A program made the translations under genes and the position numbers. This document shows positions 15,344 through 61,580 of a DNA stretch of 64,000 nt, in pieces. This DNA comes from an uncultured Planctomycetales bacterium (GTDB taxonomy: Bacteria; Omnitrophota; Gorgyraeia; Zapsychrales; JAHFFX01). The stretch is from positions 969 to 64,968 of the forward strand of contig CAZTCI010000003.1 of the NCBI GenBank assembly GCA_964612665.1. Direction: 5' to 3'. Within the stretch, counting starts at the first letter, position 1. Every line of letters starts with the position of its first letter. The notes beneath the pieces are model-generated. The model saw only the letters and a program-made list of their open reading frames with translations, was not told the DNA's origin and did no database searches.

Positions 15344-15715
15344 TTAATTCTTCACAAACCCACTTTCCTGTAACTTTTTAAGCAAACTAAAATCAATAAG
15401 TTTCTGATTCAACAGAATAATCATGCCACCTTTAATACGCGGTTCTCGACGGATAGTGACCTTAACGGGTTGGCCGCGTTTTTTTGCGGCGGAACGTTCA
15501 ATGCGTTCCAGCATCTTAGAAGGACACTGGTTGGCCACAACAACAACCACTTCCGGTAACTGCGGATCAAATTCTGAGGCAAACATGACTTCAAAACGGT
15601 GCACGGCGGATTCCATTAAAGAATGGTTGAGTAAAAAACCCAGAATGAAAACGATAATACCGATGACAATGATTTGAAATAGGAAAATTTGAAGGAGGGC
15701 GGTGGTTAAGGTCAT
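15344..15715 (-). CDS. hypothetical membrane protein
   Basis: N-terminal TM helix. No recognisable motifs. Stop/start-coupled to the downstream and upstream genes. Confidence 0.4.
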   Translation of the reverse strand: MTLTTALLQIFLFQIIVIGIIVFILGFLLNHSLMESAVHRFEVMFASEFDPQLPEVVVVVANQCPSKMLERIERSAAKKRGQPVKVTIRREPRIKGGMIILLNQKLIDFSLLKKLQESGFVKN

Positions 15716-17016
15716 TGGACTTGAGCTTGGGCTTTCTGTAAATTTTCTTTTTCGGAGGCAAGGTAAAGAGCGGCGGCGTTCACGAGATCAACATTTTTAT
15801 CTTCTTCTCTTCGATCCGGAATCAATCCGCCGAAACTAAAGACACTTCCATCCGGAAAATGACCGCGGGCGGTTACGAGTAAAAGCATGGATTGGTCGTC
15901 AAAATTAAACATGCTTTTTAACATCACCTGACCGGCGGTGTTCGCTCCCATCAAAATCGCCCGGCCGCGTTTTTGCAGGACGCCCGAAAAAAGTTCGGAG
16001 GCGCTCCCGCTTTCTTTATTGACGAGAATGACAAGCGGGCCATGATAACGAAAGCGTTCTGGAATAAAAGGAACATCTAACGGAGATTGGACTTCTCCTT
16101 TTCTTTGAAAATAAGCGAATTCTTCCTTCGGCGGTAAAAAGAAAGCGGAGATTTCGCGTGCCGCTAAAGGCGGGCCGCCGGGATTGCCGCGCAAATCCAA
16201 AATCAGCCCAGAATTTTCTTGTTTTTGGATCCAGACGAGATAACGCAGCATATCATCAGATGTTTTTTGATTAAAGCTGCGGATTTGCAGGCAATAAATG
16301 CCGGGAACTCTAACCGGGACCATAAAAACGGTTTGTTTAAAGTATTCTTGGCTGACGACCTCAATTTTTTTCGGATGATTGTCACCGAAAGTCAAATAAT
16401 CCAGCCTGACTTTAGAATCGACCAAAGGATTTAATAAGTCTTGAACTTGGTCTTCTTTCAAAGATTTACTGGGCCGGCCATCAATGGCTAAAATTATGTC
16501 CTTAACCCTTAAACCCTGAACATAAGCATCTGAGCGGGGTTCAATCATTGTAACAACATAACCAATCGGCAAGAGTTTGCCTTCGATGCCGAGATCGACT
16601 TTTTTACCGAGGACTTTTTTCTCAAATTTTTCGGCGAATTTAGGCGGGATGAATTCAGAAAAGATATCTTCTTTGGATTTAAGGTCCTGAATCATGTAGG
16701 CGGCGCCCCGCCATTTCACATAATTGTCAGACTGGCCTTCTTTTCTTAACTCTGTATAAAGCCGTTTTTTAAATCGCTGAATGAATTGACTGTAAATCCG
16801 CGCATCAACCGGAAGATAATAATTTTCTTCCATGGTCTTGTACACTTTGTCGAAAAACTGAAGGAAAGGTTTGTAATCTTGGTCGCGGGGAGATTTCATA
16901 GACTTGGCGGACAATTTTTCCGTCGCTGAGGCGGCGGATATACAAAACGTAAAGAGCATTATCGCAAGAAAACCCGCGGCCAATCGTGACGGCAATTTAA
17001 CTGTGACTAAATACAT
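15712..17016 (-). CDS. ctpA: C-terminal processing peptidase (S41 family, PDZ-containing)
   Basis: LILDLRGNPGGPPLAAREISAFF and PLVILVNKESGSASELFSGVLQ. Signal peptide MYLVTVKLPSRLAAGFLAIMLFTFCISAASA. Start moved to 17016 because the longer track ORF runs through a terminator hairpin. Confidence 0.75.
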   Translation of the reverse strand: MYLVTVKLPSRLAAGFLAIMLFTFCISAASATEKLSAKSMKSPRDQDYKPFLQFFDKVYKTMEENYYLPVDARIYSQFIQRFKKRLYTELRKEGQSDNYVKWRGAAYMIQDLKSKEDIFSEFIPPKFAEKFEKKVLGKKVDLGIEGKLLPIGYVVTMIEPRSDAYVQGLRVKDIILAIDGRPSKSLKEDQVQDLLNPLVDSKVRLDYLTFGDNHPKKIEVVSQEYFKQTVFMVPVRVPGIYCLQIRSFNQKTSDDMLRYLVWIQKQENSGLILDLRGNPGGPPLAAREISAFFLPPKEEFAYFQRKGEVQSPLDVPFIPERFRYHGPLVILVNKESGSASELFSGVLQKRGRAILMGANTAGQVMLKSMFNFDDQSMLLLVTARGHFPDGSVFSFGGLIPDRREEDKNVDLVNAAALYLASEKENLQKAQAQVQ

Positions 17017-17060
17017 AGTAGGGGCATTATAACACAGCAATTTTAATTGCATACAAAAGG

Positions 17061-17135
17061 ATAAAAAATGCACGCCGGGCGCTTGAGCTGTTTCGCCCGA
17101 ACTTTTACGCCCGGCGAAACAGCTCAAGCGCCCCC
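17061..17135 (-). terminator. rho-independent terminator after the 17229..17609 gene
   Basis: A ~22-bp GC-rich inverted repeat (cgggcgcttgagctgtttcgcc / ggcgaaacagctcaagcgcccg), followed on the minus strand by a TTTTTTAT run. Confidence 0.6.
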
Positions 17136-17228
17136 GTCATCCGCCAAACTTCCATCTAAAAAAATTCCCGCGAGCCACTTACGCGACTGCGGGAATTCAT
17201 TTACAGAAATTTTAAATATTCTAACCGC

Positions 17229-17609
17229 TTACCATTTACTGCTGTTTGTATTTGAACCCCACCTGGTTTCAGCGGATGAGCTTGTTGCCTTCGCTTCTTT
17301 GGTTTCTATTTTTTGGGCCGTTGTTTTAGCAGAATCGGTAACTGACGTAGAGCGCGTTGTGTTCCAAGCTGAATTAGAAGCGGTATTTGAATTTGTTGAA
17401 GTATTTGAGTTCCAGGCTGAGGTTGTTGATTGAGTTGTCGTTGACGCCTTGTGTCTAGTTTGTCTATCCGGAACAATATTAGACGTTGCCTGAACGGTTT
17501 GTTTGGTTTTATTACGTCGGTGCCAGTTAATCAGCTGTGCGGAACTCGTTTCAACAAACGCAAAAGTTAATAACATAATCCACCCCATCACAAAAATTTC
17601 TTTTTTCAT
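17229..17609 (-). CDS. small secreted S/T/N-rich low-complexity protein
   Basis: Signal peptide MKKEIFVMGWIMLLTFAFVETSSA, then a Ser/Thr/Asn-rich tract. Confidence 0.5.
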   Translation of the reverse strand: MKKEIFVMGWIMLLTFAFVETSSAQLINWHRRNKTKQTVQATSNIVPDRQTRHKASTTTQSTTSAWNSNTSTNSNTASNSAWNTTRSTSVTDSAKTTAQKIETKEAKATSSSAETRWGSNTNSSKW

Positions 17610-17661
17610 ACAACCCTCCTTACTATTTTTTAAATTTTAAATTATTGCTGCCATATAAAAC

Positions 17662-18225
17662 TTAACGGGCATACGATTCTAGCTCCGGAAGCTCATTAGC
17701 GGTAATTACACCATCATGATTGCGGTCAAATTCGTAAGTAATATCAGAATGAACCGGATAACTTCCCGACGACCTAACAACACTAGCCACGTGAGTCAAA
17801 AAAGTTTTAATTTCGCTTGAATCCAGCTTCCGGTCGCCATTCGCATCAAACCCTTCTTCTTCTTTATTATGCAGTGGCAACGCGCCGCCGGTACGCAAAG
17901 CTTTATGGACCTGACTTTCGACGGGCGCTTGAGTTGCCGCGGGCTGCGTTTTTACAGGTTCGGGAGGAGGTGCTTGAACTGAATCTTTTTTATCAGGCGC
18001 AGGCGCTTCAAGGGCCGGGGTGTTATTATCAATATTTTTCGACGGAGATTCAGATGGTTCTTGGCTTGTGGTAGCATTTGTTTCTTCAGTAGTCGTATTG
18101 GCCACAGATTCTGAAGAAGTGGAAGATGTTGAGACAACGGGTTCATTTAAATCAGCAAAACACAGATGAGCATAAATCCCGCCCATCACAGCAATGATAA
18201 AACCATTTAAAATAATTTTTTTCAT
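17662..18225 (-). CDS. secreted EF-hand calcium-binding protein
   Basis: Signal peptide. Two EF-hand loops (DANGDRKLDSSE, DRNHDGVITANE). Acidic and P/T-rich linker. Confidence 0.6.
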   Translation of the reverse strand: MKKIILNGFIIAVMGGIYAHLCFADLNEPVVSTSSTSSESVANTTTEETNATTSQEPSESPSKNIDNNTPALEAPAPDKKDSVQAPPPEPVKTQPAATQAPVESQVHKALRTGGALPLHNKEEEGFDANGDRKLDSSEIKTFLTHVASVVRSSGSYPVHSDITYEFDRNHDGVITANELPELESYAR

Positions 18226-18340
18226 AACTGTTCTCTCAATTTTATTGTTGGAGTGAGTTGGCTTTGAAATTAAGTTTTGACTGCCGTTATTATAATGTTA
18301 CCAGTTAGGCTGTCAATAAAAGACCGACATTTTTTAAACT

Positions 18341-19066
18341 TTATTTATGATCTGTGACCAGAGTCGGCTTAGTCTTTAAAAATTCTTTCAGCGTTTTCTC
18401 CTCGAGGGAACTTAGCTGTTGAAATGTTTCAGATATAATAAACTTTTCTTGAAACGTCTTTTTAAGCAAACCTGGTTTGACCGGACAATTGATCACAAAA
18501 TCTTCATGCGATCTTCCTCTCCGGTATTCAGGAACCCGCCGAGGCATTAAAAGAAATTTCTTAATGTCATCCATATTAAAATCGTAAAGAATCGTCCCGT
18601 GGTGCAAGATATAATGACGGCCGCGGTGCTGGGCATTGCCCGAAAATTTTTTATCACTGTCAATCAATGCCAAATCAGAAATCGGCCTAAAAACCGCCGC
18701 GACATCCAGAGTTTTTAACACCTCAATTACTTTCTCTAATATATAGCGGTATGATTTACCCAAGTCCAGCAAAGCAGGATCGCGGTCCTTTGCAAGGATC
18801 AAAGAAAAATTAAGACATCCGGGACCTTGCACCACTGTTCCCCCGCCGGAAAAACGACGATACACTGGAACGTTTTCTTTTTTGGCTGCCAAAAGATTAA
18901 CATCCTCTTCAAGTTTAGATATCCGTCCTAAAACAATAAATCTTCTTGATGATTCCCAAAATCTCAAAACTTCACCGCTGTGCCCAGCTTCGACCAGATG
19001 CAGTAAAACTTCATCAAAAAGAATATTTTCTTCCGGCGATGGCAGAGAAACATCTTTAAATAACAT
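18341..19066 (-). CDS. lipoate-protein ligase / octanoyltransferase family protein (LplA/LipM-like)
   Basis: BPL/LplA/LipB-fold motifs (RRFSGGGTVVQGPGCLNFSLIL). Sits next to the glycine-cleavage genes, whose H protein is lipoylated. Confidence 0.6.
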   Translation of the reverse strand: MLFKDVSLPSPEENILFDEVLLHLVEAGHSGEVLRFWESSRRFIVLGRISKLEEDVNLLAAKKENVPVYRRFSGGGTVVQGPGCLNFSLILAKDRDPALLDLGKSYRYILEKVIEVLKTLDVAAVFRPISDLALIDSDKKFSGNAQHRGRHYILHHGTILYDFNMDDIKKFLLMPRRVPEYRRGRSHEDFVINCPVKPGLLKKTFQEKFIISETFQQLSSLEEKTLKEFLKTKPTLVTDHK

Positions 19067-19089
19067 AACAAAAGCCCATTCAAGAATGA

Positions 19090-20550
19090 TTAACTTTTTT
19101 TCGGTGAGAAAAAATTCGTATCAAGATCGCGGGCCGCTTTCACTTCATCCGGCCGCGAAATCGGCATTGTTTTAGGAAAATCTTTAAATGCGTCGGGGTT
19201 TTCTGAGGAAAGTTTATCGGCAGTGATCATTAAATCAATGAATTTATCGAGGGTTTCTTTGGACTCCGTTTCCGTCGGTTCAATCATGATGGCTTCTTTG
19301 ACAACCAAAGGAAAATAAACGGTCGGCGGGTGAACGTTCTGATCGATCAAAAATTTGGCGATATCGATCGCATGGACACCGCGCTCCGCCTGTTTGGCGG
19401 CGGAAAACACGCATTCATGCATACAGCGTCTTTCAAAGGGAAGCTGATAATACGCTTTCAAACGTTCCATAATATAATTTGCATTTAAAACCGCGTGATT
19501 ACTTGTTTCAATCAACCCTTCTTTTCCTAAAAGCAGAAGATACGCATACGCCCGCAACAAAAGCGCGAAATTTCCGTACAACGACGCGATATAACCGATT
19601 GATTCCGGATAATTGTAATCCAACGCAAAAGTTCCGTCGTGGCGTTTAATGACACGGGAAATGGGTAAATATTTGGCGAGCTTTTCTTTAACACCGACAG
19701 GGCCAGCTCCCGGGCCACCGCCGCCGTGAGGTGTGGTTAAAGTCTTGTGCGTATTGATATGCATGACATCAAAACCAATATCACCCGGCCGGCACCGGCC
19801 TAAAATCGCGTTTAAGTTAGCGCCGTCATAATACATAAGCCCGTCGATATCATGGACCATCTTTGTGATCTTATCGATATCAGAGTTAAAAATGCCTAGC
19901 GTGTCCGGACAGGTCAGCATCACACCCGCGACGTCAGGCGTTAATTTATTTTTCAAAACATTTAAATCCCAGACGCCGTTTTTATTTGTTGGAATTGAAA
20001 TAATGTCGTATCCGGCAATCGCCGCTGTTGCTGGATTCGTTCCATGCGCAGAATCCGGAACAATAATAAATTTTTTCTTATTCCCTTTGGCTTTATGATA
20101 GGCGGCGATAATCATAACGCCTGTCAATTCGCCGTGCGCGCCGGCTAAAGGTTGCATCGTGAAATGATCCATGCCGGTAATTTCAGAAAGCCAGCGGTCC
20201 ATTTCATAAAGAACTTGTAGCGCTCCTTGCGTTAAAATACCGCCGGAACGCAACTGCGGCAAAAGCGGATGCAAATTCGCAAACCCAGCCAGCCGCGCAA
20301 TCGCTTCGGTAAACTTCGGATTATATTTCATGGTGCAAGAACCCAGCGGATAAAAATGGGTATCGACGGAAAAATTCAACTGCGAAAGCCGTGTGTAATG
20401 ACGCACGACATCTAATTCACTCACCTCTGGAAGTTCGGAATTTTTCAAGCGCTGATATTCTTTAGGAATGGTTCCTTTGACAGGAACGTCGGATTCCGGA
20501 AAATGCATCCCGCGCCGGCCGCTTACACTTTTCTCAAAAATTAATTCCAT
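19090..20550 (-). CDS. gcvPB: glycine dehydrogenase (decarboxylating) subunit 2
   Basis: PLP-dependent P-protein C-terminal half (MHINTHKTLTTPHGGGGPGAGP). Confidence 0.9.
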   Translation of the reverse strand: MELIFEKSVSGRRGMHFPESDVPVKGTIPKEYQRLKNSELPEVSELDVVRHYTRLSQLNFSVDTHFYPLGSCTMKYNPKFTEAIARLAGFANLHPLLPQLRSGGILTQGALQVLYEMDRWLSEITGMDHFTMQPLAGAHGELTGVMIIAAYHKAKGNKKKFIIVPDSAHGTNPATAAIAGYDIISIPTNKNGVWDLNVLKNKLTPDVAGVMLTCPDTLGIFNSDIDKITKMVHDIDGLMYYDGANLNAILGRCRPGDIGFDVMHINTHKTLTTPHGGGGPGAGPVGVKEKLAKYLPISRVIKRHDGTFALDYNYPESIGYIASLYGNFALLLRAYAYLLLLGKEGLIETSNHAVLNANYIMERLKAYYQLPFERRCMHECVFSAAKQAERGVHAIDIAKFLIDQNVHPPTVYFPLVVKEAIMIEPTETESKETLDKFIDLMITADKLSSENPDAFKDFPKTMPISRPDEVKAARDLDTNFFSPKKS

Positions 20551-27270: not shown

Positions 27271-27418
27271 TAGAATTTATCTAGAAGTCATCTCATAAAT
27301 GGTATTGAGCGGGCAACGGGTGGCACGGCGAGCCGATTGGGGGAGGATCCACGCCGGGCGGAGGGGCCACAAGCGGTTTGCCGTGACAGGACCCGCTGCT
27401 TCGACTATTTATAAGATA
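27271..27418 (+). repeat. GC-rich structured MITE-like element, copy 1 (~148 nt)
   Basis: ~90% identical to 58217..58364. Short terminal inverted repeats (CTAGAA..TTCTAG; ATAAAT..ATTTAT). Internal long-range pairing GCGGG..GCACGGC / GCCGTG..CCCGC. ~65% GC against a ~43% GC background. Confidence 0.7.
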
Positions 27419-31946: not shown

Positions 31947-31981
31947 ATCTTAAATTTTAGAATTAAGAGTGTTATTAAAAT

Positions 31982-32087
31982 CTTATTAAACGCGAATTTT
32001 CACGAATTACACACGAATCTCGCGAATACTCCTAAGTTGATTCGCGGCCATTCGTGTGTAATTCGCGTTAATTCGCGTTTAATAAGG
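31982..32087. repeat. REP-like palindromic element, 'acacacgaat' family, copy A
   Basis: Nested inverted repeats (ttattaaacgcgaatt...aattcgcgtttaataag; cacgaattacacacgaat / attcgtgtgtaattcg) in the ftsW-murD intergenic region. Confidence 0.7.
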
Positions 32088-32112
32088 TTTTCAAACTCTT
32101 TTCAAATCCTTT

Positions 32113-46514: not shown

Positions 46515-49070
<2,556 letters not shown>

Positions 49071-49074
49071 TCAG

Positions 49075-49145
49075 AACGCGAATTTTCGCAAATTGCACAC
49101 GAATATTCGCGAAAATTCGTGTGCAATTCGCGAAAATTCGCGTTA
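49075..49145. repeat. REP-like palindromic element, 'acacacgaat' family, copy B
   Basis: Near-perfect palindrome ttgcacacgaatattcgcgaaaattcgtgtgcaa between ligA and acyP. Confidence 0.7.
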
Positions 49146-49147
49146 AC

Positions 49148-49426
49148 CTAAGTTACAATCTCAAAATCCCGAAAAACCCCCAGCGAAGGCACCCAGTCAA
49201 TTTTCTCATCCCGAATATAACCTTCATAACGTTTTTTTAAATTGACCTGCAGAGATTGAATGTCCTCTTTGGCCCCTTCCACTTCAATCTCAACCTGGCC
49301 GTCGGCTAAATTCCTAACCCATCCGACGAGTTTCAACTCCCGCGCGTAGCGCTGTGTTGTATACCGAAACCCGACGCCTTGAACAGCGCCGGAGTAGAAT
49401 ATGTGGGCGTGGGTGATAGGAGACAT
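49148..49426 (-). CDS. acyP: acylphosphatase
   Basis: VQGVGFR and GWVRN motifs, 92 aa. Confidence 0.85.
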
Positions 49427-49456: not shown

Positions 49457-49717
49457 TTAAGTGTTGGAGGAAAAATAATCTTTCAACATCATTCTCAAAG
49501 CGACTTTGCCTTTAGTTGTCTTGAAATACTGCTCTCTTCTAATTGCGTCGCTTTTGAGTAAATAAGCTTCATAAAAAATCAGCTTTAATGGTCTTCTAAA
49601 TTTCGTAGATGGAACTTCGCCATCATTATGCCGTTTCATTCTTTGATCAATGTCTTCTGTGAAGCCTGTGTATAGTAATAGATCTTTTTGGCTGGGGAGG
49701 ATGTAGACGTAATACAT
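49457..49717 (-). CDS. GIY-YIG nuclease-family small protein (UPF0213-like)
   Basis: YYVYIL...LYTGFTEDIDQRMKRHN. Start set at the internal Met because the upstream ORF extension overlaps tRNA-downstream hairpins. Confidence 0.6.
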   Translation of the reverse strand: MYYVYILPSQKDLLLYTGFTEDIDQRMKRHNDGEVPSTKFRRPLKLIFYEAYLLKSDAIRREQYFKTTKGKVALRMMLKDYFSSNT

Positions 49718-49863
49718 AGCTGAAAGCAACTCTATCCTGTACCAGTCGCTTCGCTCCGGTACAGGACTCATAAACCCTAGTGTCGTTTACTTCGGGCCTG
49801 CCATAAACCTGAGCGAGTCATTCTTCATCGCTTTCCTTCGTTGCATGACTCGCGAATGGTTTA

Positions 49864-49940
49864 TGGTCGGGGAGGAGGGATTTGAACCCTCGACCTCAAC
49901 GTCCCGAACGTTGCGCGCTAGCCAACTGCGCTACTCCCCG
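49864..49940 (-). tRNA. tRNA-Pro (anticodon CGG), CCA encoded
   Basis: Minus-strand sequence CGGGGAGTAGCGCAGTTGGCTAGCGCGCAACGTTCGGGACGTTGAGGTCGAGGGTTCAAATCCCTCCTCCCCGACCA. Anticodon loop TTCGGGA. Confidence 0.8.
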
Positions 49941-50069: not shown

Positions 50070-50507
50070 TTATTCTGTTTCTTTAATACTAAATCCAATA
50101 TCAGCTTCAGCCACGAGTTTATCGGCAACGAGCGTTTTGATTCTTAAAAATCCGGCCTTAGGCAGCATCTTGATTGAAGTGACTTCAATTCTTAATTGAT
50201 CGCCCGGGACAACCGGCGCGTGGAATTTGGCTTCGACTCGGGCCAAATAGTAGGTCAAAGTTTTGCCGTGCATATTTTTACTGTAGTAAAAAAAGACGCA
50301 GCCTGCCTGGGCCATGGCTTCAATAATCAAAACGCCCGGCATGATCTTCTCTCCGGGAAAATGCCCAACGAAAAACTGCTCATTGATCGAAACGTTTTTA
50401 ATCGCAACCAGTTTTTCCCGCGGCACGATCTCAAGCACTTTGTCGATCAGCAAAAACGGGAAACGGTGAGGAATAATTTTTTTAATTTCACGAATGTCAA
50501 GTTCCAT
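50070..50507 (-). CDS. fabZ: 3-hydroxyacyl-ACP dehydratase
   Basis: Hotdog fold with the catalytic motif (FFVGHFPGEKIMPGVLIIEAMAQ). Confidence 0.9.
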   Translation of the reverse strand: MELDIREIKKIIPHRFPFLLIDKVLEIVPREKLVAIKNVSINEQFFVGHFPGEKIMPGVLIIEAMAQAGCVFFYYSKNMHGKTLTYYLARVEAKFHAPVVPGDQLRIEVTSIKMLPKAGFLRIKTLVADKLVAEADIGFSIKETE

Positions 50508-50520
50508 AAAGTTCCTTTCA

Positions 50521-50603
50521 GCGTATAGCGGGTAGCGGGTAGTGAAATTTTATAAATACTAAACACCTATCCGCTATGTACTTTCCGCTACCTAACTGAT
50601 CCA
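50521..50603. repeat. palindromic element 'tagcggtcagcgg / ccgctatccgctgcc' family, copy a
   Basis: gcgggtagcgggtag ... ctatccgctatg..ccgctacc inverted repeats. Related to copies at 51967-52029, 53625-53850 and 55085-55275. Confidence 0.6.
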
Positions 50604-51779
50604 CTTAAGAATAGGCGTTTCGAAAAATTGCTTTAACGGCATTTCGGATGTTCCCACAACCAGCGTCTTGGATTTAGGATATTCTTTGAAAAAAAGAGAT
50701 AAACCGGATAAAGCTTTACGTTTTCCACTTTTGACTTCAATGGCAACGATCTTGTTTCCTTTACGCATAATAAAATCGATCTCATCATTGCCTTCACGCC
50801 AATAATAGACTTCTACTCCGGCCGCTAAGCCGTTGTTCACCAAATGCGCTCCCACCGCTACCTCTACTAAACGTCCCCACGATTCGAAATCATTTCTCCA
50901 TTCACTGAAACTGCGATTGGCCAGTGCCGTCATCAAACCCGTATTTAACGGCAGCCATTTGGGAATCGATGCGCGCTGCCGGACTTTATTGCCTGACCAT
51001 TTAGAAATTCCGCAAATCAAAAATGCAGATTCGAGAAGTCTCTGATAATGGGCGAGGGTTGTTGTGTTCCCGGCATCATGCAGCTGTCCTAGGATTTTTT
51101 GATAAGAAAGGATCTGCCCTCCATACGTACAGGCAAGAACAAACAACTGCCGCAATAAAGCTGGTTTCTCAACGCTGGTCAAAAGCAAGATATCTTTTGA
51201 AATCGCTGTCTCGATAAGAGAATCTCGGATGTATTGCCCCCAGCGTTCTTCCTCATCGATTAAAGAAGCGGCGCCGGGATATCCACCAAAATAAATATAC
51301 TGATCGATTGACCAATGAAAGGCATCCCGGCATTCTTCCCAAGACCAATGGGGAAAACGAATGACCTCAAAACGCCCGGCTAAACTTTCCTCTAAACCTT
51401 TTTTGATCAGCAAAGACGATGATCCGAGAAGAACGACCAGAAGCGGCCGGGACAAACGCGTGTCTTCATCCCATAGCCGCTTGACTTCCGTTGACCAATG
51501 GGATATTTTCTGAATCTCATCGAGGATCAAAATGACCGGCGTCTTGTTTTCAAGCTTTAATCTGGCTGCTTCCCATTGTCGGGAAATCCACCCCGTGTCC
51601 GGAGGTGCGGGTAAATCGGCAGCGGCATAATGATACGGGATATTTAATTCTCCGACAACCTGCTGAATCGCCGTCGTCTTTCCCACCTGCCGAGGACCGA
51701 TAATCGCTTGAATGAAACGTCTTTTTTCTTTCAGCCGTTGTTTGATAGCCTCAGCGATGGGACGTTTATATCTTTTCAT
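50592..51779 (-). CDS. AAA+ ATPase, COG1373 / DUF4143 family
   Basis: Walker A GPRQVGKTT and Walker B ILILDEIQ. C-terminal DUF4143-like region. Confidence 0.8.
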   Translation of the reverse strand: MKRYKRPIAEAIKQRLKEKRRFIQAIIGPRQVGKTTAIQQVVGELNIPYHYAAADLPAPPDTGWISRQWEAARLKLENKTPVILILDEIQKISHWSTEVKRLWDEDTRLSRPLLVVLLGSSSLLIKKGLEESLAGRFEVIRFPHWSWEECRDAFHWSIDQYIYFGGYPGAASLIDEEERWGQYIRDSLIETAISKDILLLTSVEKPALLRQLFVLACTYGGQILSYQKILGQLHDAGNTTTLAHYQRLLESAFLICGISKWSGNKVRQRASIPKWLPLNTGLMTALANRSFSEWRNDFESWGRLVEVAVGAHLVNNGLAAGVEVYYWREGNDEIDFIMRKGNKIVAIEVKSGKRKALSGLSLFFKEYPKSKTLVVGTSEMPLKQFFETPILKWIS

Positions 51780-51966
51780 AGAATTCTCCCATAATTATCT
51801 CAGCGCGTTGAGTAATTTTACTCAATATTATGAGTAAAATCAAAAGATATTTCAGGCCTTCGCTCTTAAATAAAATTCTTAATCGGTTCCCTGGCTCGTC
51901 ACAACGATGATCAGCGACACAGAAAAGTTAACGAATGTTTTAGATTTTTTCCATCTATCATGTCTA

Positions 51967-52029
51967 GTGGATAGCGGTCAGCGGTTAATGGAATTTATAA
52001 AACACTATCCGCTATGCGCTATCCGCTGC
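51967..52029. repeat. palindromic element, 'ccgctatcc' family, copy b
   Basis: tggatagcggtcagcggttaatgg ... ctatccgctatgcgctatccgctgcc. Confidence 0.6.
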
Positions 52030-52034
52030 CTTTA

Positions 52035-53585
52035 TTAATTAAGCACTGATCCCCCTCGAATAAGGCTGCCTCCTTGGATCAAATGATTATGCGTACCACT
52101 TGTATAGTTAATATAAAAACTAACATTCCAGGTTTTCGCAGCATCTTCCGTCCAGGAATTAGGAAGAGAACCAGTTGCCTCATGAGCAGATGTGTCATAA
52201 GCGGCATTGGAATCGTATTCATTTTTCCAACCGACACAATCAATAGGTGATTGACCATCAGTGCAGGAATCGGCCAGCCAGTAGGTGGTTCCATTTGTCA
52301 TGGAGTATGATCCGGAGACATTAATTGTAAAGGTCGTTACGGTGGTTGTTAAACTCAAAGAAGCGCTGACTTCATCACGTTTTGTCACCGGCACTCCGGA
52401 TCCGTTACTGTATAAACCAAGATAAACGGTCGCTGTACGAGCTCCATTTCCATTTCTTCCCCGCCAGCTTCCACTGGAGATCGTTGAGCCTGTCGTCCCG
52501 CCAAACGAACCCGCATTATACGCTAATTCCCAATCATCAGTATTATCTTCAGATGATCCATTCGTTGTATATCCATACGTCGGATCAATGCGGACTGGGT
52601 AATCGGCGTTGTCTAGAAAATCCTGCGGAACGTCCACGCTCAAAATCCCTTTGGCATACGCCAGTGTCGCCCAGGTTTCGCGGCCGTTTCGGTCAATCGC
52701 TTTGGGTCGGTAAATATGAAACAATTTTCCCGTCGCGTAATTGGTCTTTCCGATCTCATGGTCTCTTTTTTTCTTGTGATAAACGGCATAAGAGCCGACC
52801 ACATTTTCGGGACGGGTATTCATGACGCGTCCTTTTTTGTCAAAACATTGCGTCTCTGTGCAATGGTCGGTGCCTAGTTTAAGTGAGGACGGAATCTCTT
52901 TATTTAAGGCGGGCTGGTAAAGAAAATTTAAATGCCGGGCGCCTTTGATTACAAAATCAAATTTGTTTATCCGCGGTTTTTCTTTCAAAATGATTTCCAT
53001 CTCAATCCCACCGTCTTCCATTTGAGCATCCGCTTTGAGCGGATAAGCGCGAACATCTTCTTTGTCTCCCTTCCACTCGACGATCTCTGAGTCTCCAACC
53101 CTTTGGCCTCGGCCATGAACCTTTGGATAAATAACGCTGAAACCTGATGCGCCGCTCCATCTAGAAAGCGTCACTTGCGGCCTGGACTTTTTGAATTCCG
53201 CTTTTGAAATGCCTCCCTCGGGAACGGAATTGCCCATCTTGATTTGAAATCGGTTGAATCGTTCTTCTAAATGGCCGATCGTTATGACAGGCGATTGCGG
53301 TGTCTGTGCCTTGGGCAGGTTCTCCAATTTCACATTGGTTTCCCCTTGGGCCGGATATGGAAGTGCTTTCTGATTTAACCAGGGAAATGGAAAACTTTGA
53401 TCATTATAAAATCGCAGACCATTTCCTTTCGATAAGATTAATTCCTCAGGCCAATACATCCATTGAGTCAACAAAGAATCAATCGCCAGCGCTGCGCGAG
53501 ATTCTTTGTTGGATAGAATCAAAACGCTACCGATCAACAGCAGAGTAAGCAGAAAAGTTGGGGGAAATCTTGGTATTTTTATCAT
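52035..53585 (-). CDS. secreted hypothetical protein (516 aa), Gly/Ser/Thr-rich C-terminal half
   Basis: Signal peptide MIKIPRFPPTFLLTLLLIGSVLIL. No recognisable catalytic motifs. Confidence 0.5.
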   Translation of the reverse strand: MIKIPRFPPTFLLTLLLIGSVLILSNKESRAALAIDSLLTQWMYWPEELILSKGNGLRFYNDQSFPFPWLNQKALPYPAQGETNVKLENLPKAQTPQSPVITIGHLEERFNRFQIKMGNSVPEGGISKAEFKKSRPQVTLSRWSGASGFSVIYPKVHGRGQRVGDSEIVEWKGDKEDVRAYPLKADAQMEDGGIEMEIILKEKPRINKFDFVIKGARHLNFLYQPALNKEIPSSLKLGTDHCTETQCFDKKGRVMNTRPENVVGSYAVYHKKKRDHEIGKTNYATGKLFHIYRPKAIDRNGRETWATLAYAKGILSVDVPQDFLDNADYPVRIDPTYGYTTNGSSEDNTDDWELAYNAGSFGGTTGSTISSGSWRGRNGNGARTATVYLGLYSNGSGVPVTKRDEVSASLSLTTTVTTFTINVSGSYSMTNGTTYWLADSCTDGQSPIDCVGWKNEYDSNAAYDTSAHEATGSLPNSWTEDAAKTWNVSFYINYTSGTHNHLIQGGSLIRGGSVLN

Positions 53586-53624
53586 CTATTAAAATTAGAT
53601 TCTTTGAGATCGTTCTCTAAACTC

Positions 53625-53850
53625 AAAAAACGGAGAACAGATGTCAGAATTTCAGCAGATAGCTGGCGATTAGCAGTCAGCGGTTAGTGAAGACTGTTAA
53701 AAATTGATAATTAACGCGAATTCTCACGAATTACACACGAATATTTGTGTGCAATTTGCGTTTATTCGGTTCAAATGTTGTTATTCAACAGTTCTCATTA
53801 GTTAAAAATACTAAACACTATCTGCTCTACGCTAGCCGTTACCTTTAGAC
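53625..53850. repeat. composite repeat: 'ccgctatcc'-family arms with a nested 'acacacgaat' REP (copy c and REP C)
   Basis: Left arm cagcagatagctggcgattagcagtcagcggttagtg. Central cgcgaattctcacgaattacacacgaatatttgtgtgcaatttgcg. Right arm actaaacactatctgctctacgctagccgttacc. ~85% identical to 55085-55275. Confidence 0.65.
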
Positions 53851-53895
53851 AATTTACTTGACAAGCATAAAATATCCGGATAAATTTATACCACA

Positions 53896-55047
53896 ATGAA
53901 AATTATCCAAAGACGACAATTCAACCTGAACCTTCCCAAAGGGAAATCTGCTTTCCTTTGGGGACCACGGAAAACAGGCAAAAGCTATTGGATCAAACAT
54001 CATCTTCCAGCTGCTCCTCTCATTGATCTTCTTAAAACTGATGTTTTTGCGGAATATTCCTCCCGGCCTTCTCTTTTAAGGGAACGATATCAAGATCAAA
54101 AGGGACTTATCGTCATCGATGAAATCCAAAAAGTTCCGGCACTTCTCGATGAAGTTCATTGGCTCATTGAAAACGGAGCGCTTTCTTTTCTTTTAACCGG
54201 ATCGAGCGCCCGCAAACTCCGCCACGGACATTCCAACCTCTTGGGCGGACGAGCCTGGAAAAGAACAATGTGCCCTCTCTCTTGGAGTGAAGTTTCCGGT
54301 TTCGATTTGGAACAGGTCATGACATCCGGTCTTTTGCCGCCTCACTTTCTTTCTTCAGCGCCCTTGGAAGATCTACGCGCCTACGTTGGGGATTATTTAA
54401 AAGAAGAAATCGCCGCCGAAGCGCTGACTCAAAATATTCCAGCTTTCAGTGAATTTCTACGCATTGCCGCCATCACCTCAAGTGAACTCATCAATTATGT
54501 CAACATCGCCCGAGAAGCTGGCATTTCCCATAACGTTGTCCGCAATTACATCAGTATCTTGGAAGACACTTATCTTGGACGCCGGCTGTCTTCCTGGAAA
54601 AAGTCATCGAATCGACGGATGATTCTCACCGAAAAATTTTATCTTTTTGATGTCGGTGTCGCCAATTATTTAGCCCATCGACAACCCAAGATTGGCAGTC
54701 CGGAATTCGGTAAATCCTTCGAACATTTTATTTTTATGGAACTGTGCGCCTATCAAGCTTACCGTGCTTTTGATCTACCGCTAAGTTACTGGCGTTCCAG
54801 TACCGGTTATGAAGTTGATTTTATCGTCGGAGATAAAGAACTTGCCATTGAAGCTAAGGCCTCTTCTCGGGTCCATGAAGGGGATTTACGTCCTATGCGA
54901 GCGCTTCTAGAAGACGGCCCCATCAAACATCCTTGCATCGTCTCACTTGAGAAAGAACCACGTCGCACCTCTCACGGAATCAAAATCCTGCCTTGGAATA
55001 TTTTTCTCAAAGAACTTTGGGACGGAAACTTGATTAAAAGCTCATAA
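53896..55047 (+). CDS. AAA+ ATPase, COG1373 / DUF4143 family (second copy, opposite strand)
   Basis: Walker A GPRKTGKS and Walker B LIVIDEIQ. Same architecture as 50592..51779. Confidence 0.8.
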   Translation: MKIIQRRQFNLNLPKGKSAFLWGPRKTGKSYWIKHHLPAAPLIDLLKTDVFAEYSSRPSLLRERYQDQKGLIVIDEIQKVPALLDEVHWLIENGALSFLLTGSSARKLRHGHSNLLGGRAWKRTMCPLSWSEVSGFDLEQVMTSGLLPPHFLSSAPLEDLRAYVGDYLKEEIAAEALTQNIPAFSEFLRIAAITSSELINYVNIAREAGISHNVVRNYISILEDTYLGRRLSSWKKSSNRRMILTEKFYLFDVGVANYLAHRQPKIGSPEFGKSFEHFIFMELCAYQAYRAFDLPLSYWRSSTGYEVDFIVGDKELAIEAKASSRVHEGDLRPMRALLEDGPIKHPCIVSLEKEPRRTSHGIKILPWNIFLKELWDGNLIKSS

Positions 55048-55084
55048 TCCTTTGATTTCTGACATCCGTCCTCTGAACTAAGAA

Positions 55085-55275
55085 AACGGAAAACAGAGGT
55101 CAGATGTTAGAATTTCAGCAGATAGCGATTAGCGGTCAGTTAAGACTGTTTAAAATTGCTTAACGCGAATTCTCACGAATTACACACGAATATTCGCGAA
55201 TATTTGTGTGCAATTCGCGTTTATTTGCGTTCAAATTATTATTAACAGCGCTCTACACACTATCCGCTGCTTTCA
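55085..55275. repeat. composite repeat (copy d and REP D), direct repeat of 53625-53850
   Basis: aaaacggaaaacagaggtcagatgttagaatttcagcagatagcgattagcggtcag ... cgcgaattctcacgaattacacacgaatattcgcgaatatttgtgtgcaattcgcg ... ctctacacactatccgctgc. Confidence 0.65.
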
Positions 55276-55312
55276 ATTAATCATCAATCCTTTCTCGAAG
55301 TTTATTGTCTTC

Positions 55313-55759
55313 CTAAAACTCCATTAGGCGAAACATTTTGACACTCTGATTAAACGTCACTTCCTTAAAGAGATCAAAAAAGCCATCTCTGCCTAAGAAT
55401 CCAATACCTTTGCTGTTTAACTTGGTAGAGAATCCAGCCCGACATTCAAAAATCCAAGGTTCATCTTTAATGATGATTTCCACTTTCACCTGATGAAAAT
55501 ATAATGTTTCTTTACCGCCTATCCCGAAGGTGGACAGATTTTTCCCTTCTTGAATATTTAGTCCAATAGCCTTTCCCGTATTAACTGGAAATACGCAAAA
55601 ATCGGCCCCGGAATCAACAAGGGAATCGATATAGAATAATCGTTCCTTATTTTTATAAAACAGTGTGGTTTTCAAAACAGGAACGTAAATAGTTTTGGAA
55701 GGAATATCACCTTGCGCAGGTATTTGAATTCTTTGATATGGAACAGTGCTGTAGCTCAA
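55313..55759 (-). CDS. retropepsin-like (clan AA) aspartic protease
   Basis: DSGAD active-site motif (YIDSLVDSGADFCVFP) followed by a glycine-rich flap-like GIGG. 148 aa. Confidence 0.6.
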   Translation of the reverse strand: MSYSTVPYQRIQIPAQGDIPSKTIYVPVLKTTLFYKNKERLFYIDSLVDSGADFCVFPVNTGKAIGLNIQEGKNLSTFGIGGKETLYFHQVKVEIIIKDEPWIFECRAGFSTKLNSKGIGFLGRDGFFDLFKEVTFNQSVKMFRLMEF

Positions 55760-55962
55760 AAGATAATGGCAGCTGTTGAAGCGTCGGGAGATTTAACTAT
55801 ATGTGGACAGGACTCGCCTTTTCTGTGTGCATCATTTAACACCGCCTGAAAACTTTTGCGTACACTGACAACATGGGTGTCGTCAGCGGATAGAGCAACC
55901 CACCGCCCAGGAAATGGTTTAATTAATTCGTTGATTGATGTTTCTTTAACGCGTTTAATCAT
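55756..55962 (-). CDS. small DUF5678-like protein coupled to the retropepsin-like protease
   Basis: ~69 aa (MIKRVKETSINELIKPFPGRWVALSADDTHVVSV...). 4-nt stop/start overlap with the protease gene. Confidence 0.45.
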   Translation of the reverse strand: MIKRVKETSINELIKPFPGRWVALSADDTHVVSVRKSFQAVLNDAHRKGESCPHIVKSPDASTAAIIF

Positions 55963-56012
55963 GGTTTCATTATGATCTTCAAATATTTTGAAACAAGAAA
56001 AATTTAAAAAAT

Positions 56013-56786
56013 TTAACGCATTGTCATCCCGCCATCTACACAAATAATCTGGCCGGTGATATATTGAGCTGAATCGCTCAGCAAAAATTTAACGCAGTTG
56101 GCCACATCTTCGACGGAACCGATGCGGCCCAGCGGAATGGTTTCGGCGATTTTCTTTTTTTGTTCGTCTTTAAATCCGGAAAGGATATCGGTTTCAATAA
56201 AACCAGGGGCGACCGCGTTGACGCGGATATTGAAGGCCGCGACTTCTTTGGCCAGCGCTTTTGTAAACGCGTTAATGCCGCCTTTTGTCGCTGAGTAATT
56301 TGTCTGACGGGCGAGGCCGATGACGCCGCTGACCGAGGAGATATTAACAATCGCGCCGCTTTTTTGTTTCATCAAAGTGACGATAACTGCGCGCGAGGCG
56401 TTATAAAATCCCGTTAAATTGGTATCAACAACTGTCTGCCAATCTTCGGGCGTCATCATCATTAAGGCCTTGTCGATAATAATGCCGGCGTTGTTGATGA
56501 GAATATCGAGCCGGCCGAAATGTTCGCGCGTTTGCTCGACCCAGGCTTTGACTTGGTTGAAATCTTTCATGTCAACCTGCGCGGCTTTGACGTCGCCGCC
56601 GAGCTTTTTGACTTCCTCTTCTAATGCCTGCGCAGCGTTCTGATTTTTTTGATAACTAAACGCGACCCGAGCGCCGGATTTCGCGAGCATAAGTACAATC
56701 GCGCGTCCGATACCGCGGCTACCGCCGGTGACAAGCGCGACTCTATCTTTTAAAAATTTTTCAGTCTCGTTGAAAGATTCGCTCAT
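56013..56786 (-). CDS. fabG: 3-oxoacyl-ACP reductase (SDR)
   Basis: TGGSRGIGRAI, NAG, YSATK motifs. Confidence 0.85.
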   Translation of the reverse strand: MSESFNETEKFLKDRVALVTGGSRGIGRAIVLMLAKSGARVAFSYQKNQNAAQALEEEVKKLGGDVKAAQVDMKDFNQVKAWVEQTREHFGRLDILINNAGIIIDKALMMMTPEDWQTVVDTNLTGFYNASRAVIVTLMKQKSGAIVNISSVSGVIGLARQTNYSATKGGINAFTKALAKEVAAFNIRVNAVAPGFIETDILSGFKDEQKKKIAETIPLGRIGSVEDVANCVKFLLSDSAQYITGQIICVDGGMTMR

Positions 56787-58024
56787 GGTTCATATTTCCT
56801 TAAAACCATGCAGGTGTTTTGGCCGCTGGGCGCCATGGTTACGACCAAAACATTTTTGACTTTGGCGGGGCGCGATTGGTTAGGCACGTAATCCAAATCG
56901 CAATCCGGATCAGGTTCTTTGTAATTCACCGTTGGAGGAAGGAAATCCCAGTTGATTGCGCCCAGGGCGGCGAGCGTTTCGAACGCGCCGGAGACGCTGT
57001 AACACTCGCCGGTCATCGATTTAACGGCGCTGACTGGAATTTTGTGGGCATGTTCACCAAACACTTCTTTAATCGCGAGCGTCTCAACGCGGTCGGCGGT
57101 AATTGTTGAATTCGCGTTGGCCGCAATATAGTCGATGTCTTTAGGCTCAAGCCCCGCATCTTCTAACGCAAAACGCATCGCTTGTTTGATGCCGGTTGCG
57201 CGTGGATTATATTTATGGATGCGGAAAGGATCAAAGCAAGTGCCGAAGCCCACAACCTCGGCGAGAATCCGCGCGCCGCGGGCTTTAGCCTGGTCATAAT
57301 CTTCCATTGCAACAAGCGCCGCGCCTTCGCCAAAGGTCACGCCGTTACGTCTTTTATCAAAAGGACAATTGATAAATGTTTCGCCGGGCTTTGATCCGGA
57401 CATAAACTGCAGATTATAAAATCCAAAAAATGTTTGGATGCACAACTCTTCAACCCCGCCGGCGAGGATAAATTTATACCGGCCGTCTTTGATGAAATCA
57501 TAAGCATAACTCATCGCATCCAGACTTGCGGTGAAGCCGGTCGATATCGTTGTGTTAAAACCTTTGATGTAATGCCAGATGGAAATCTGGCTGGCAGGGG
57601 AATTGATGACCGTGTTGGGGAAAAGTGCGGGATTGACGTAGCGCGGGCCTTCGCGCAGCGTGATTTCGTCAAACTCAACAATGCTGCGCAAACTGCCGAG
57701 CGTGCAGCCGACGGAGACACCGCATTCTTCGGTATTTGTGTCGTCAATTTTGAATCCGGTATCATCGATACAGAGTTTGGCGGCGGAAACGATGAGTTTG
57801 ATACTCCGGTCTAAAAGCCTCAGCCGTTTTTCGCCCATGTAAACGCGGGCGTCGAAGTCGCTGATTTCACCGGCGATTTTTGTCGCGAATTGTTCAGGAT
57901 CGAAGGTCACAATCGGTTTGTAACCGACTTTACCATCTTTTAAAGCCTGCCAAAATTCTTCGCGGCCTTTACCGTTGCTCGCTAAAATGCCAGCGCCTGT
58001 GATGACGACACGTGGATCTTCCAT
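56783..58024 (-). CDS. fabF: beta-ketoacyl-ACP synthase II-like
   Basis: KAS thiolase fold with active-site Cys (GCTLGS... region) and the C-terminal His pair. Confidence 0.8.
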   Translation of the reverse strand: MEDPRVVITGAGILASNGKGREEFWQALKDGKVGYKPIVTFDPEQFATKIAGEISDFDARVYMGEKRLRLLDRSIKLIVSAAKLCIDDTGFKIDDTNTEECGVSVGCTLGSLRSIVEFDEITLREGPRYVNPALFPNTVINSPASQISIWHYIKGFNTTISTGFTASLDAMSYAYDFIKDGRYKFILAGGVEELCIQTFFGFYNLQFMSGSKPGETFINCPFDKRRNGVTFGEGAALVAMEDYDQAKARGARILAEVVGFGTCFDPFRIHKYNPRATGIKQAMRFALEDAGLEPKDIDYIAANANSTITADRVETLAIKEVFGEHAHKIPVSAVKSMTGECYSVSGAFETLAALGAINWDFLPPTVNYKEPDPDCDLDYVPNQSRPAKVKNVLVVTMAPSGQNTCMVLRKYEP

Positions 58025-58216
58025 AAAGAAATTTTATTTAGATGATTAAATACTGTCGGTTAAAGTTAAGATGCCGGTATCGTTTAGCGTTTGAAGGTAA
58101 CGTTGAGACCAAAAACCTAACCCATCAACGAAACGGGCATCGTTACCTTTACTATTTTTGAGTGCGGCTATATCGTATACAAGGTTGTGGAAAAAAGCAA
58201 TAATGAGTTCTTATTA

Positions 58217-58364
58217 CTAGAAGTCATCTCCTAAATGGCATTGAGCGGGCAGCGGGTGGCACGGCGAGCCGATTGTGGGAGGATCCACACTGGGCGGAGG
58301 GGCCCACAAGCGGTTTGCCGTGACAGGACCCGCTGTCTTCGGCTATTTATGCGATACGTTCTAG
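58217..58364 (+). repeat. GC-rich structured MITE-like element, copy 2
   Basis: ~90% identical to 27271..27418, with the same TIRs and internal pairing. Confidence 0.7.
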
Positions 58365-58367
58365 AAT

Positions 58368-58430
58368 GAAAACAAAAAGCGCCGGGCCCAGGCCTGGCAA
58401 CCACGCAGCGCCGACAGGCCTGGGCCCGCG
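58368..58430 (-). terminator. rho-independent terminator downstream of ribE
   Basis: 14-bp GC stem gggcccaggcctg / caggcctgggccc, followed on the minus strand by CTTTTTGTTTT. Confidence 0.6.
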
Positions 58431-58445
58431 GTCATTTATCGTCGG

Positions 58446-58490
58446 TTAATTCGCGAATATCCGCGTGCAATCCGCGACCATTCGCGTTCA
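58446..58490. repeat. REP-like element, 'acacacgaat' family, degenerate copy E
   Basis: aattcgcgaatatccgcgtgcaatccgcgaccattcgcg. Confidence 0.4.
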
Positions 58491-58498
58491 TAGAAGTT

Positions 58499-59092
58499 TT
58501 AACGCCGCCCCAAAACATACTTCGCCAAAATATCCGTCTCAATATTCACCGCGTCATTAATTTTCTTTAAACCGAGCGTTGTGACTTTAAGCGTAAACGG
58601 AATTAAATAAACTGAAAACCAGGACGCCGTCACAGTGCCGACCGTTAGGCTGACACCATCTAAAGTTATTGAACCTTTGGGCACTAAAAAACGCTTCAAC
58701 TGTTTATCGCAATTTATCCGAAATTCAACAAAATTCGGCCGCTTAAAAATATTCTTTATGACACCAACACCATCCACATGCCCGGAGACAAAATGACCGC
58801 CGAACCGGCTGTTTGCTTTCAACGCGCGCTCAAAATTCACCATCGAGCCTTTAGCTAAATCTTTTAGCGTCGTTTTCAAAATCGTTTCCTGCATCGCTTC
58901 AAAAATAAATCGATCCGGCCGTACTAACTGCGTTGCCGTCAAACAAATACCGTTGACCGCAATGCTATCTCCTTTTTTTGTTCCCTTGAAAATAGCGCCG
59001 CAGCGAACGGTCAATTGCAAAAGATTCGCCAATTGTTTTACGCTTTGGACTTTTCCCTGCGCTTCAATGATCCCGGTGAACATAGCCTTCAA
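58499..59092 (-). CDS. ribE: riboflavin synthase alpha subunit
   Basis: Two lumazine-binding repeats (MFTGII... / SGHVDGVG). Confidence 0.85.
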   Translation of the reverse strand: MKAMFTGIIEAQGKVQSVKQLANLLQLTVRCGAIFKGTKKGDSIAVNGICLTATQLVRPDRFIFEAMQETILKTTLKDLAKGSMVNFERALKANSRFGGHFVSGHVDGVGVIKNIFKRPNFVEFRINCDKQLKRFLVPKGSITLDGVSLTVGTVTASWFSVYLIPFTLKVTTLGLKKINDAVNIETDILAKYVLGRR

Positions 59093-61416: not shown

Positions 61417-61446
61417 ATTTTATTTAGTCAGACTGTAACTATTGTT

Positions 61447-61492
61447 AACGCGGATCATCGCGGATTACACACAGATGATCGTGAATATTCCG
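61447..61492. repeat. REP-like element, 'acacacgaat' family, degenerate copy F
   Basis: aacgcggatcatcgcggattacacacagatgatcgtgaat. Confidence 0.4.
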
Positions 61493-61580
61493 TTGGAATC
61501 TACTTTCCGCTTAATCTGGAGTTACGCCGGGCTTGGCCCCGGCGATTTAAATAGCGTGGGCCAAGCCCGCGCTTACGGAC

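Follow-up and report, generated by a model that had tools for sequence, protein, structure and literature searches.

Defence islands in Enterobacteria are known to integrate at hot spots between conserved core genes. We describe here a related arrangement in an Omnitrophota bacterium, found in a 64-kb stretch of its DNA (the window; coordinates below count from its first letter), in which a segment at 50508-56012 separates fabG from fabZ and carries five cargo genes, two of them coding for ATPases of the PDC-S01 type. PDC-S01, a candidate defence gene for an ATPase fused to a PD-(D/E)XK domain, ranked as the fourth-commonest defence over all prokaryotes in a 2026 survey (PMC12988326). The likeness to the enterobacterial hot spots is that a fixed core-gene junction holds differing defence cargo in different genomes, two PDC-S01 genes here and AbiE in a relative. 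Unlike those hot spots, the junction lies inside a biosynthetic operon that is co-transcribed in relatives, and no integrase or mobile backbone is visible. Taken as a whole, our reading is of an accessory islet accreted from separate modules at a fab hot spot, with hairpins that are not insertion sites, and we give it a probability of about 0.6.

Gene order in relatives supports the view that the segment is an accessory, lineage-specific islet. Orthologues of the window's KS protein occur at 64-72% identity in Candidatus Omnitrophota metagenome-assembled genomes, and tblastn of the window proteins against those loci recovered a kept order, ribD-ribE-KS-fabG-fabZ-acyP-ligA-hyp-xerD. In five relatives (L003, L006, L007, L008 and L009) only 20-200 nt separate the fabG stop codon from the fabZ start, the gap being 20-75 nt, including a ribosome-binding site, in four of the five; these loci have none of the five cargo genes. 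The earlier note on this DNA had proposed that the segment is accessory and had suggested comparing genomes for it; it is missing at that position in five of six related Omnitrophota loci, so its position is not conserved across the clade. The sixth relative, L004, holds a different insert of 3.7 kb exactly at the fabG/fabZ junction (L004 11985-15668), with an AbiEi and AbiEii pair (PADLOC 7.5e-69 and 2.9e-105; Pfam DUF6088 and AbiEii). Because L004 carries AbiE there, the junction is a recurrent insertion point for defence-type cargo, with two occupied alleles seen so far. The L004 insert also holds a PDC-S14-like protein of 159 aa and a 308-aa unknown protein.

The open reading frames (ORFs) of the islet and its flanks lie where the earlier note had put them. 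The features are as follows.

50070-50507, minus strand: fabZ, a flanking gene now split from its operon (TIGR01750 score above cutoff, and synteny)
50508-56012, no strand: accessory islet between fabG and fabZ (synteny against related Omnitrophota loci)
50521-50603, no strand: B1 heptamer-array hairpin, whose right arm contains the ATPase1 stop codon, 10 nt 5' of the fabZ ribosome-binding site
50592-51779, minus strand: ATPase1, an AAA_14 ATPase with a DUF4143 PD-(D/E)xK nuclease domain, PDC-S01 type (Pfam, PADLOC, motifs)
51790-51846, minus strand: promoter-operator block of ATPase1 (DNA alignment of five loci; promoter-like match)
51965-52034, no strand: B2 heptamer-array hairpin, ending 1 nt short of the stop codon of the 516-aa ORF
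52035-53585, minus strand: 516-aa all-beta protein with an N-terminal hydrophobic segment (AlphaFold2 model, IMG/VR and BFVD relatives)
53595-53791, plus strand: direct repeat R, copy 1, with the B3 left arm at 53671-53690 and a nested family A palindrome at 53710-53780
53798-53850, no strand: B3 loop remnant and right arm, similar to the B1 loop and right arm
53846-53886, plus strand: promoter-like sites 5' of ATPase2 (TTGACA-17-TAAATT; consensus match only)
53896-55047, plus strand: ATPase2, a second, divergent AAA_14 and DUF4143 protein, PDC-S01 type (Pfam, PADLOC)
55051-55248, plus strand: direct repeat R, copy 2, with the B4 left arm at 55123-55142 and a nested family A palindrome at 55158-55234
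55253-55275, no strand: B4 right arm (repeat mapping)
55313-55759, minus strand: retropepsin-fold aspartic protease of 148 aa (motifs, profile, Foldseek; third-codon-position GC content, GC3, 0.36)
55756-55962, minus strand: 68-aa small partner, overlapping the protease start (weak DUF5678 match)
56013-56786, minus strand: fabG, flanking operon gene
56783-58024, minus strand: fabF-like KS gene, flanking operon gene

Hairpins and genes thus run in the order B1, ATPase1, B2, 516-aa ORF, B3, ATPase2, B4, and four of the five cargo genes are co-oriented with the fab operon, ATPase2 being opposite. For the small partner, the listed 95-aa ORF starts at a TTG codon and runs into fabG; a start at the ATG of 55962 instead yields a 68-aa product, and the gene has this length where it is called on an independent contig (L204).

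A tRNA-Pro(cgg) gene lies downstream of fabZ in every relative examined and at 49864-49940 in the window. A tRNA-targeted integrative island was considered and rejected, because there is no integrase and the tRNA gene is on the far side of fabZ and conserved in relatives. The sole tyrosine recombinase nearby is a XerD-like gene found at the same place in relatives. Two further observations concern this side of the operon. In L009, about 7 kb of mostly housekeeping-looking genes (12665-19616) separate fabZ from tRNA-Pro. In the window, a GIY-YIG ORF at 49457-49771 (minus strand; listed at 104 aa, 86 aa as called elsewhere; GC 0.38) is located between the tRNA-Pro and acyP genes; tblastn against the related loci gave no match for it, and it may be a further small accessory gene.

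The two ATPases share one domain architecture. ATPase1 matches Pfam AAA_14 (PF13173, 2.8e-22) and DUF4143 (PF13635, 5.7e-26), and ATPase2 matches the same two families (1e-18 and 7e-31, respectively); the proteins are 24% identical to each other, in agreement with the earlier description of two divergent DUF4143 ATPases on opposite strands. The PADLOC search that had been recommended for the region matched both to PDC-S01 models (ATPase1 to PDLC04791, 3.4e-174; ATPase2 to PDLC04790, 2.2e-51). The GPRxxGK, DE and D..ExK motifs (Walker A, Walker B and nuclease) are invariant among the two ATPases and their homologues, as are residues G28, R30, G33, K34, D87 and E88 of the ATPase part and D335, E348 and K350 of the DUF4143 nuclease. 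The DUF4143 part shows weak similarity to YraN and CARF_PDDEXK, and DUF4143 has been placed in the PD-(D/E)XK superfamily (PMC3424549).

ATPase1 has thousands of homologues at 67-75% identity, and the few with source names are from Omnitrophica, one Nitrospirae and one unclassified bacterium; weaker ATPase homologues occur on plasmids of Coxiella, Thermus and Bacteroides. We examined the neighbourhoods of ATPase1 in a small sample of four orthologue loci (72-74% identical), and toxin-antitoxin or defence genes adjoin the ATPase in all four. The gene orders are KS-KS-ATPase-MNT-HepT in L211; DUF1016, PIF1-WYL, a second DUF4143 ATPase, the ATPase, NYN, rve and a Cas3-like gene in L213; ParE, DUF6036, the ATPase, LigT, CinA and BrnT-CopG in a third locus; and TIR_2, HicB, ParE, the ATPase and two MNT-HepT pairs in a fourth. 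The second DUF4143 gene of L213, which adjoins the ATPase1 orthologue, is 48% identical to ATPase2. The earlier note had taken the gene content as typical of defence or mobile islands, and a defence or accessory island is supported by these surroundings, in which ATPase1 orthologues stand beside TIR, HepT/MNT, ParE, BrnT, Cas3-like and PIF1-WYL genes.

In another Omnitrophota genome (L211 2386-7073), the ATPase1 orthologue (73% identity) and MNT/HepT directly follow the two KS genes, a second case of such cargo adjoining fatty-acid-type genes.

Judged by domain logic and neighbourhood, the ATPase pair most plausibly represents candidate defence effectors that would act on nucleic acid. The islet resembles described PDC-S01 genes in having the full domain pair, intact Walker A/B and PD-(D/E)xK motifs, and orthologues amid defence and toxin-antitoxin genes; it differs in holding two divergent copies with an unrelated gene between them, set in a fab operon. 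An alternative is that the islet grew by neutral accretion without a defence role, the junction simply tolerating foreign DNA, the ATPases being selfish or regulatory and the repeats being ordinary palindromes of dispensable DNA. Most putative defence candidates in the core defensome still await validation (PMC12988326), PHROGs, NCBIfam and Pfam name the ATPases no further than 'ATP-binding protein', and nothing in the annotation of the 516-aa and protease modules points to defence. In addition, family A palindromes are also found in other enlarged gaps, such as that between ribE and KS (58440-58510). However, neutral accretion does not account well for two different PDC-S01 genes lying together, for the consistent richness of toxin-antitoxin and defence genes around ATPase1 orthologues, for a bona fide AbiE at the same junction in L004, or for ATPase and nuclease motifs that are intact and invariant. 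We regard neutral accretion as less likely, though still a reasonable reading.

The DNA upstream of ATPase1 is consistent with this gene having moved as a unit of its own. All five aligned loci, which come from different organisms, share a conserved block of about 60 nt in their DNA, the orthologue copies lying in L211, L213, L215 and L217 at about 4925-4990. In the window it contains a -35 element, TTGATT, and a -10 element, TAAAAT, with an inverted repeat within the spacer (IR1, TTTTACTCA-N6-TGAGTAAAA) and a second inverted repeat in the block (IR2, TTACTCA-N7-TGAGATAA). The promoter thus carries two palindromes of the form ACTCA...TGAG, and among the four distinct orthologue loci three (L211, L213 and L217) have palindromes 5' of the ATPase gene. 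Unlike this upstream block, the downstream flanks of ATPase1 are unrelated among the orthologue loci. To judge from its layout, the block looks like an autoregulated promoter, with a candidate operator moving with this PDC-S01 subfamily. The region upstream of ATPase2 shows only promoter-like similarity to that of its relative in L213.

The 516-aa protein between the ATPases has no match in Pfam, PADLOC, PHROGs or PDB sequences. Its AlphaFold2 model is all-beta (pLDDT 79.6), and a Foldseek search of the model against PDB returned nothing below E 1e-3. The protein nevertheless belongs to a sizeable family, itself without a Pfam domain, with 589 homologues and 263 confirmed related stretches in IMG/VR, mostly on contigs of 35-45 kb. 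It matches a BFVD entry at E 1.5e-31 and TM 0.65, with partial matches to phage fibre-like proteins, and genes next to the family in viral loci have weak matches to tail-fibre and baseplate families. The core shared with the viral family spans residues 112-497; viral matches begin at residues 103-136, and the first approximately 110 residues are absent from the viral relatives. This N-terminal part includes a hydrophobic helix at residues 9-24, from which we read the protein as possibly secreted or anchored; this comes from inspection of the residues and is not the output of a prediction tool. The earlier label of a secreted protein of unknown function can accordingly be made more precise, since the family is one that occurs commonly on contigs of uncultivated phages; secretion stays a reading of the residues. 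Some family members on tailed-phage contigs (IMG/VR loci L222-L301) are fused to LamG_3, MAM or DUF2341-type domains.

These viral connections raise the question of whether the islet is a degraded prophage, with the 516-aa gene a leftover tail-fibre or receptor-binding gene and its neighbours phage morons. The abundance of the family on IMG/VR contigs, the fibre-like BFVD matches, the weak tail-fibre and baseplate matches in viral loci and a YopX gene in one homologue context are what such a remnant would lead one to expect. However, the islet holds no further phage gene (none of its five proteins matches PHROGs), no integrase and no att repeat, some bacterial homologues of the 516-aa protein lie amid housekeeping genes, and the export-like N-terminal segment is unique to the islet protein relative to its viral relatives. 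A prophage origin of the islet is thus very unlikely.

At the fabG end of the islet, the 148-aa protein has a retropepsin fold according to motifs, profile and structure comparison, as had been proposed for a retropepsin-like protease with a small partner. In its family, D49, S50 and G51 (the DSG motif) are invariant, and G123 and R124 (of the GRDG motif) are nearly so. Its profile matches feline immunodeficiency virus (FIV) protease (E 0.0026), and the match to Pfam Asp_protease_2 is below cutoff (E 0.011). The top Foldseek match of its AlphaFold2 model (pLDDT 85) is Rickettsia APRc (PDB 5c9f, E 9e-6), with further matches to FIV and human immunodeficiency virus proteases. It resembles APRc in predicted fold, catalytic DSG and GRD-type motif; unlike APRc, it is soluble, has only 148 aa and lacks a membrane domain, and its gene always comes with an upstream gene of about 70 aa that overlaps it. 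In the islet this 68-aa partner has a weak Pfam match to DUF5678 just short of cutoff (E 8e-5) and no PADLOC match even at E 1; the protease itself has only weak matches to PADLOC PDC-M08B (E 2e-5 to 4e-3). In L219 the pair is found again, flanked by unrelated genes, with identities of 72% and 75%. The GC3 of the pair is 0.35-0.36, against 0.55-0.56 in fabG and KS.

We mapped three kinds of repeat in and around the islet: hairpins of family B, a direct repeat (R) and palindromes of family A. The arms of family B are degenerate tandem heptamers, three to four in each, with (TAGCGGN)n on the left and (NCCGCTA)n on the right. With up to three mismatches allowed, a 16-mer of the left arm matches six times where 0.44 matches are expected, a count that none of 100 shuffles reached; all six fall within the islet, and nhmmer searches with each B copy found no other in the remaining 58 kb of the window. 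The four sites flank each gene of the trio formed by ATPase1, the 516-aa ORF and ATPase2, exactly as had been described. Three of the four B copies lie directly 3' of cargo stop codons, and the repeat that contains B4 begins four bases past the ATPase2 stop. The hairpins are modestly stable, with a DNA fold z of about -2.7 compared with -8.9 for family A.

Repeat R is a 197-nt direct repeat that brackets ATPase2, and through it B3 is a duplicate of the B4 composite. Its copies are identical in 164 of 179 aligned columns (91.6%), with a further 37 gap nucleotides (about 76% identity if gaps are counted), so that the previous estimate of ~200-bp direct repeats at ~85% was fair. The same account had described them as composites with a nested 'acacacgaat' REP, and each R copy does contain a family A palindrome (CACACGAAT). 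Family A is a strong 70-nt palindrome (CGCGAAT / CACACGAAT), REP-like, and is present at six intergenic sites in the window (31965-32099, 49065-49150, 53710-53780, 55158-55234, 58440-58510 and 61436-61503). It was not found in the Omnitrophota relatives, and short-read contigs of the same organism break inside its copies. With six intergenic sites in 64 kb and its effect on short-read assembly, family A behaves like the repetitive extragenic palindromic (REP) sequences and bacterial interspersed mosaic elements, whereas family B has four sites in the window, all in the islet. Rfam has no family for A, for B or for the metagenomic heptamer hairpins described below.

The distribution of the repeats bears on whether they brought the cargo to this junction. 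The islet had been called repeat-bounded, but only one of its boundaries has a B copy, and the boundary on the fabG side (55963-56012) has no repeat. The proposal that the repeats mediated insertion is not supported, on the same ground and also because the islet has no recombinase or transposase, heptamer-array hairpins like B are widespread without the cargo and none is found around cargo homologues. Of the proposed repeat-mediated rearrangement, the 197-nt duplication around ATPase2 does point to one such event; the rest is unsupported. A single repeat-bounded mobile element is therefore not supported: the islet lacks a recombinase and a target duplication, and one of its boundaries is without a repeat. 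Searches with nhmmer and regular expressions found no family B copy in about 0.96 Mb of loci that encode cargo homologues, inverted-repeat scans found none around ATPase1 orthologues, and the Omnitrophota relatives have none. The idea that B travels with the cargo was rejected, since no copy lies around the cargo homologues.

Hairpins between single genes also invite comparison with integrons, and B might be a recombination site (attC-like or new) at which single-gene cassettes are captured and shuffled. An imperfect palindrome stands at each gene boundary of the trio, as between integron cassettes, a direct repeat surrounds ATPase2, B is limited to the islet, and short-read contigs break at repeats so as to leave ATPase2 alone on a contig of 1474 nt. 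However, these breaks are in family A and not in B, no intergenic gap of the islet has a pair of RYYYAAC...GTTRRRY cores, and the integron integrase IntI is missing, the nearby XerD-like gene being conserved in relatives. Unlike integron cassettes, the genes are of mixed orientation, with ATPase2 opposite, and have their own promoters, that of ATPase1 being conserved. Furthermore, B is missing at the boundary next to fabG, at the protease pair and around cargo homologues elsewhere, and the hairpin architecture is widespread without the cargo. With no core sites, no IntI and mixed orientation, the integron/attC reading was rejected, and a cassette array of any kind is very unlikely.

Heptamer-array palindromes are not peculiar to this locus. 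They occur in at least 120 unrelated metagenomic contigs (L083-L202), mostly from soil or sediment and of GC 0.6-0.7. The search pattern asked only for two left and two right heptamer cores; among the matches listed, an extra in-phase unit is present on the left in 48 and on the right in 35, against an estimated 0.1-0.2% of matches for each by chance, and many contigs have perfect (TAGCGGA)n...(TCCGCTA)n palindromes. Of 82 palindromes among these matches, 48 have convergent ORFs on their two sides and 7 have divergent ORFs, a rough statistic given the crude ORF calls used in these high-GC contigs. A bias to convergent ORFs is the placement expected for gene-end hairpins. None of the matches listed encodes a homologue of the islet cargo. 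We found no paper on the heptamer sequence among the sources searched, in which this class of palindrome appears to be undescribed. Nothing usable turned up there on PDC-M08, on DUF5678 or on the cyanobacterial heptamer repeats considered next.

Heptamer repeats as such are known from cyanobacteria, as the short tandemly repeated repetitive (STRR) sequences. Family B is like them in principle only, in being built of tandem heptamers, here in inverted arrays; its heptamer TAGCGGN is not an STRR unit, and in the sequence covered B is found only in the islet. A more speculative proposal is that heptamer-array palindromes are gene-end elements widespread across phyla, which here mark module boundaries and provide homology for the capture or exchange of single defence genes at a hot spot within an essential operon; we consider this quite doubtful.

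Other repeats and gaps in the window lie outside the islet. The ribE/KS gap measures 474 nt (58025-58498), compared with about 58 nt in L003, and holds a terminator-like strong stem with a T tract on the minus strand (approximately 58380-58432), a GC-rich hairpin element and the family A palindrome at 58440-58510. A third repeat family, at 27276-27413 and 58212-58350, is an imperfect, GC-rich hairpin, about 120-140 nt long; its two copies show 93-97% identity and fold at z -4.4 to -5.9, with no match in Rfam. One copy lies between murC and ddl, 17 nt 5' of the ddl ATG, and the other between ribE and KS. From position 1 to about 6000 on the minus strand, more than 100 tandem 39-nt units make up part of the gene for a giant repeat protein that extends past the window start, each unit encoding 13 residues of the type G(V/I)NWxDxD.

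Several observations weigh against our reading of the islet as accreted modules with non-recombining hairpins. No integrase, transposase, recombinase or target-site duplication is present in 50508-56012, and no empty-site allele was seen, since all Logan contigs of the organism retrieved by exact-protein look-up (SRR12313477-80) carry pieces of the islet. That B is restricted to the islet in the sequence covered could mean that it came in together with the cargo, or that it has some local function outside our reading. One copy, B3, is placed between two divergent gene starts and not at a 3' end. A terminator scan calls no B copy, and the T tract is missing after B1, B2 and B4; B1, which lacks a T tract and lies directly upstream of the essential gene fabZ, cannot be an efficient terminator there. 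A role of B as classical intrinsic terminators was rejected on these grounds. The roughness of the ORF-context count tempers the comparison with metagenomic hairpins, and the defence reading of PDC-S01 draws on association.

With these points in mind, we propose that modules with separate histories accumulated at the permissive fabG/fabZ junction of the ribD-ribE-KS-fabG-fabZ-tRNAPro cluster. One module would be the low-GC gene pair for the 68-aa protein and the retropepsin-fold protease, a second ATPase2, a third the phage-type beta-sandwich or jelly-roll surface protein, equipped at its N-terminus with an export or anchor segment of its own, and a fourth ATPase1, which may have moved with its own promoter-operator; this numbering implies no firm order of events. 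The ATPases may use ATP in a sensing step and then attack nucleic acid, invading or cellular, as nucleases. The B hairpins would most likely be transcript-end or insulator hairpins of the generic kind found at gene 3' ends and not recombination sites. The R copies around ATPase2 are the only clear structural scar and would record a single homology-driven event, in which either a circular R-ATPase2 segment was captured in the Campbell manner or unequal exchange took place. Since the operon strand carries four of the five cargo genes and no T tract follows B1, read-through from the cargo probably accounts for fabZ expression.

As a defence or accessory islet the locus is fairly ordinary, being made up of known kinds of element, namely a hot-spot islet, PDC-S01 genes and REP-like palindromes, and it does not overturn current ideas. 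Less ordinary are its site within the fab operon, the ATPase1 promoter-operator shared among loci and the class of heptamer-array hairpins. The TAGCGGN hairpins at gene ends in many unrelated contigs may deserve a survey of their own. For PDC-S01, the islet would provide a compact test bed, in which ATPase1 comes with a conserved promoter and two palindromic operators. For the poorly studied Omnitrophota, it adds a hot spot for defence or accessory genes, with two alleles, inside a conserved fab operon.

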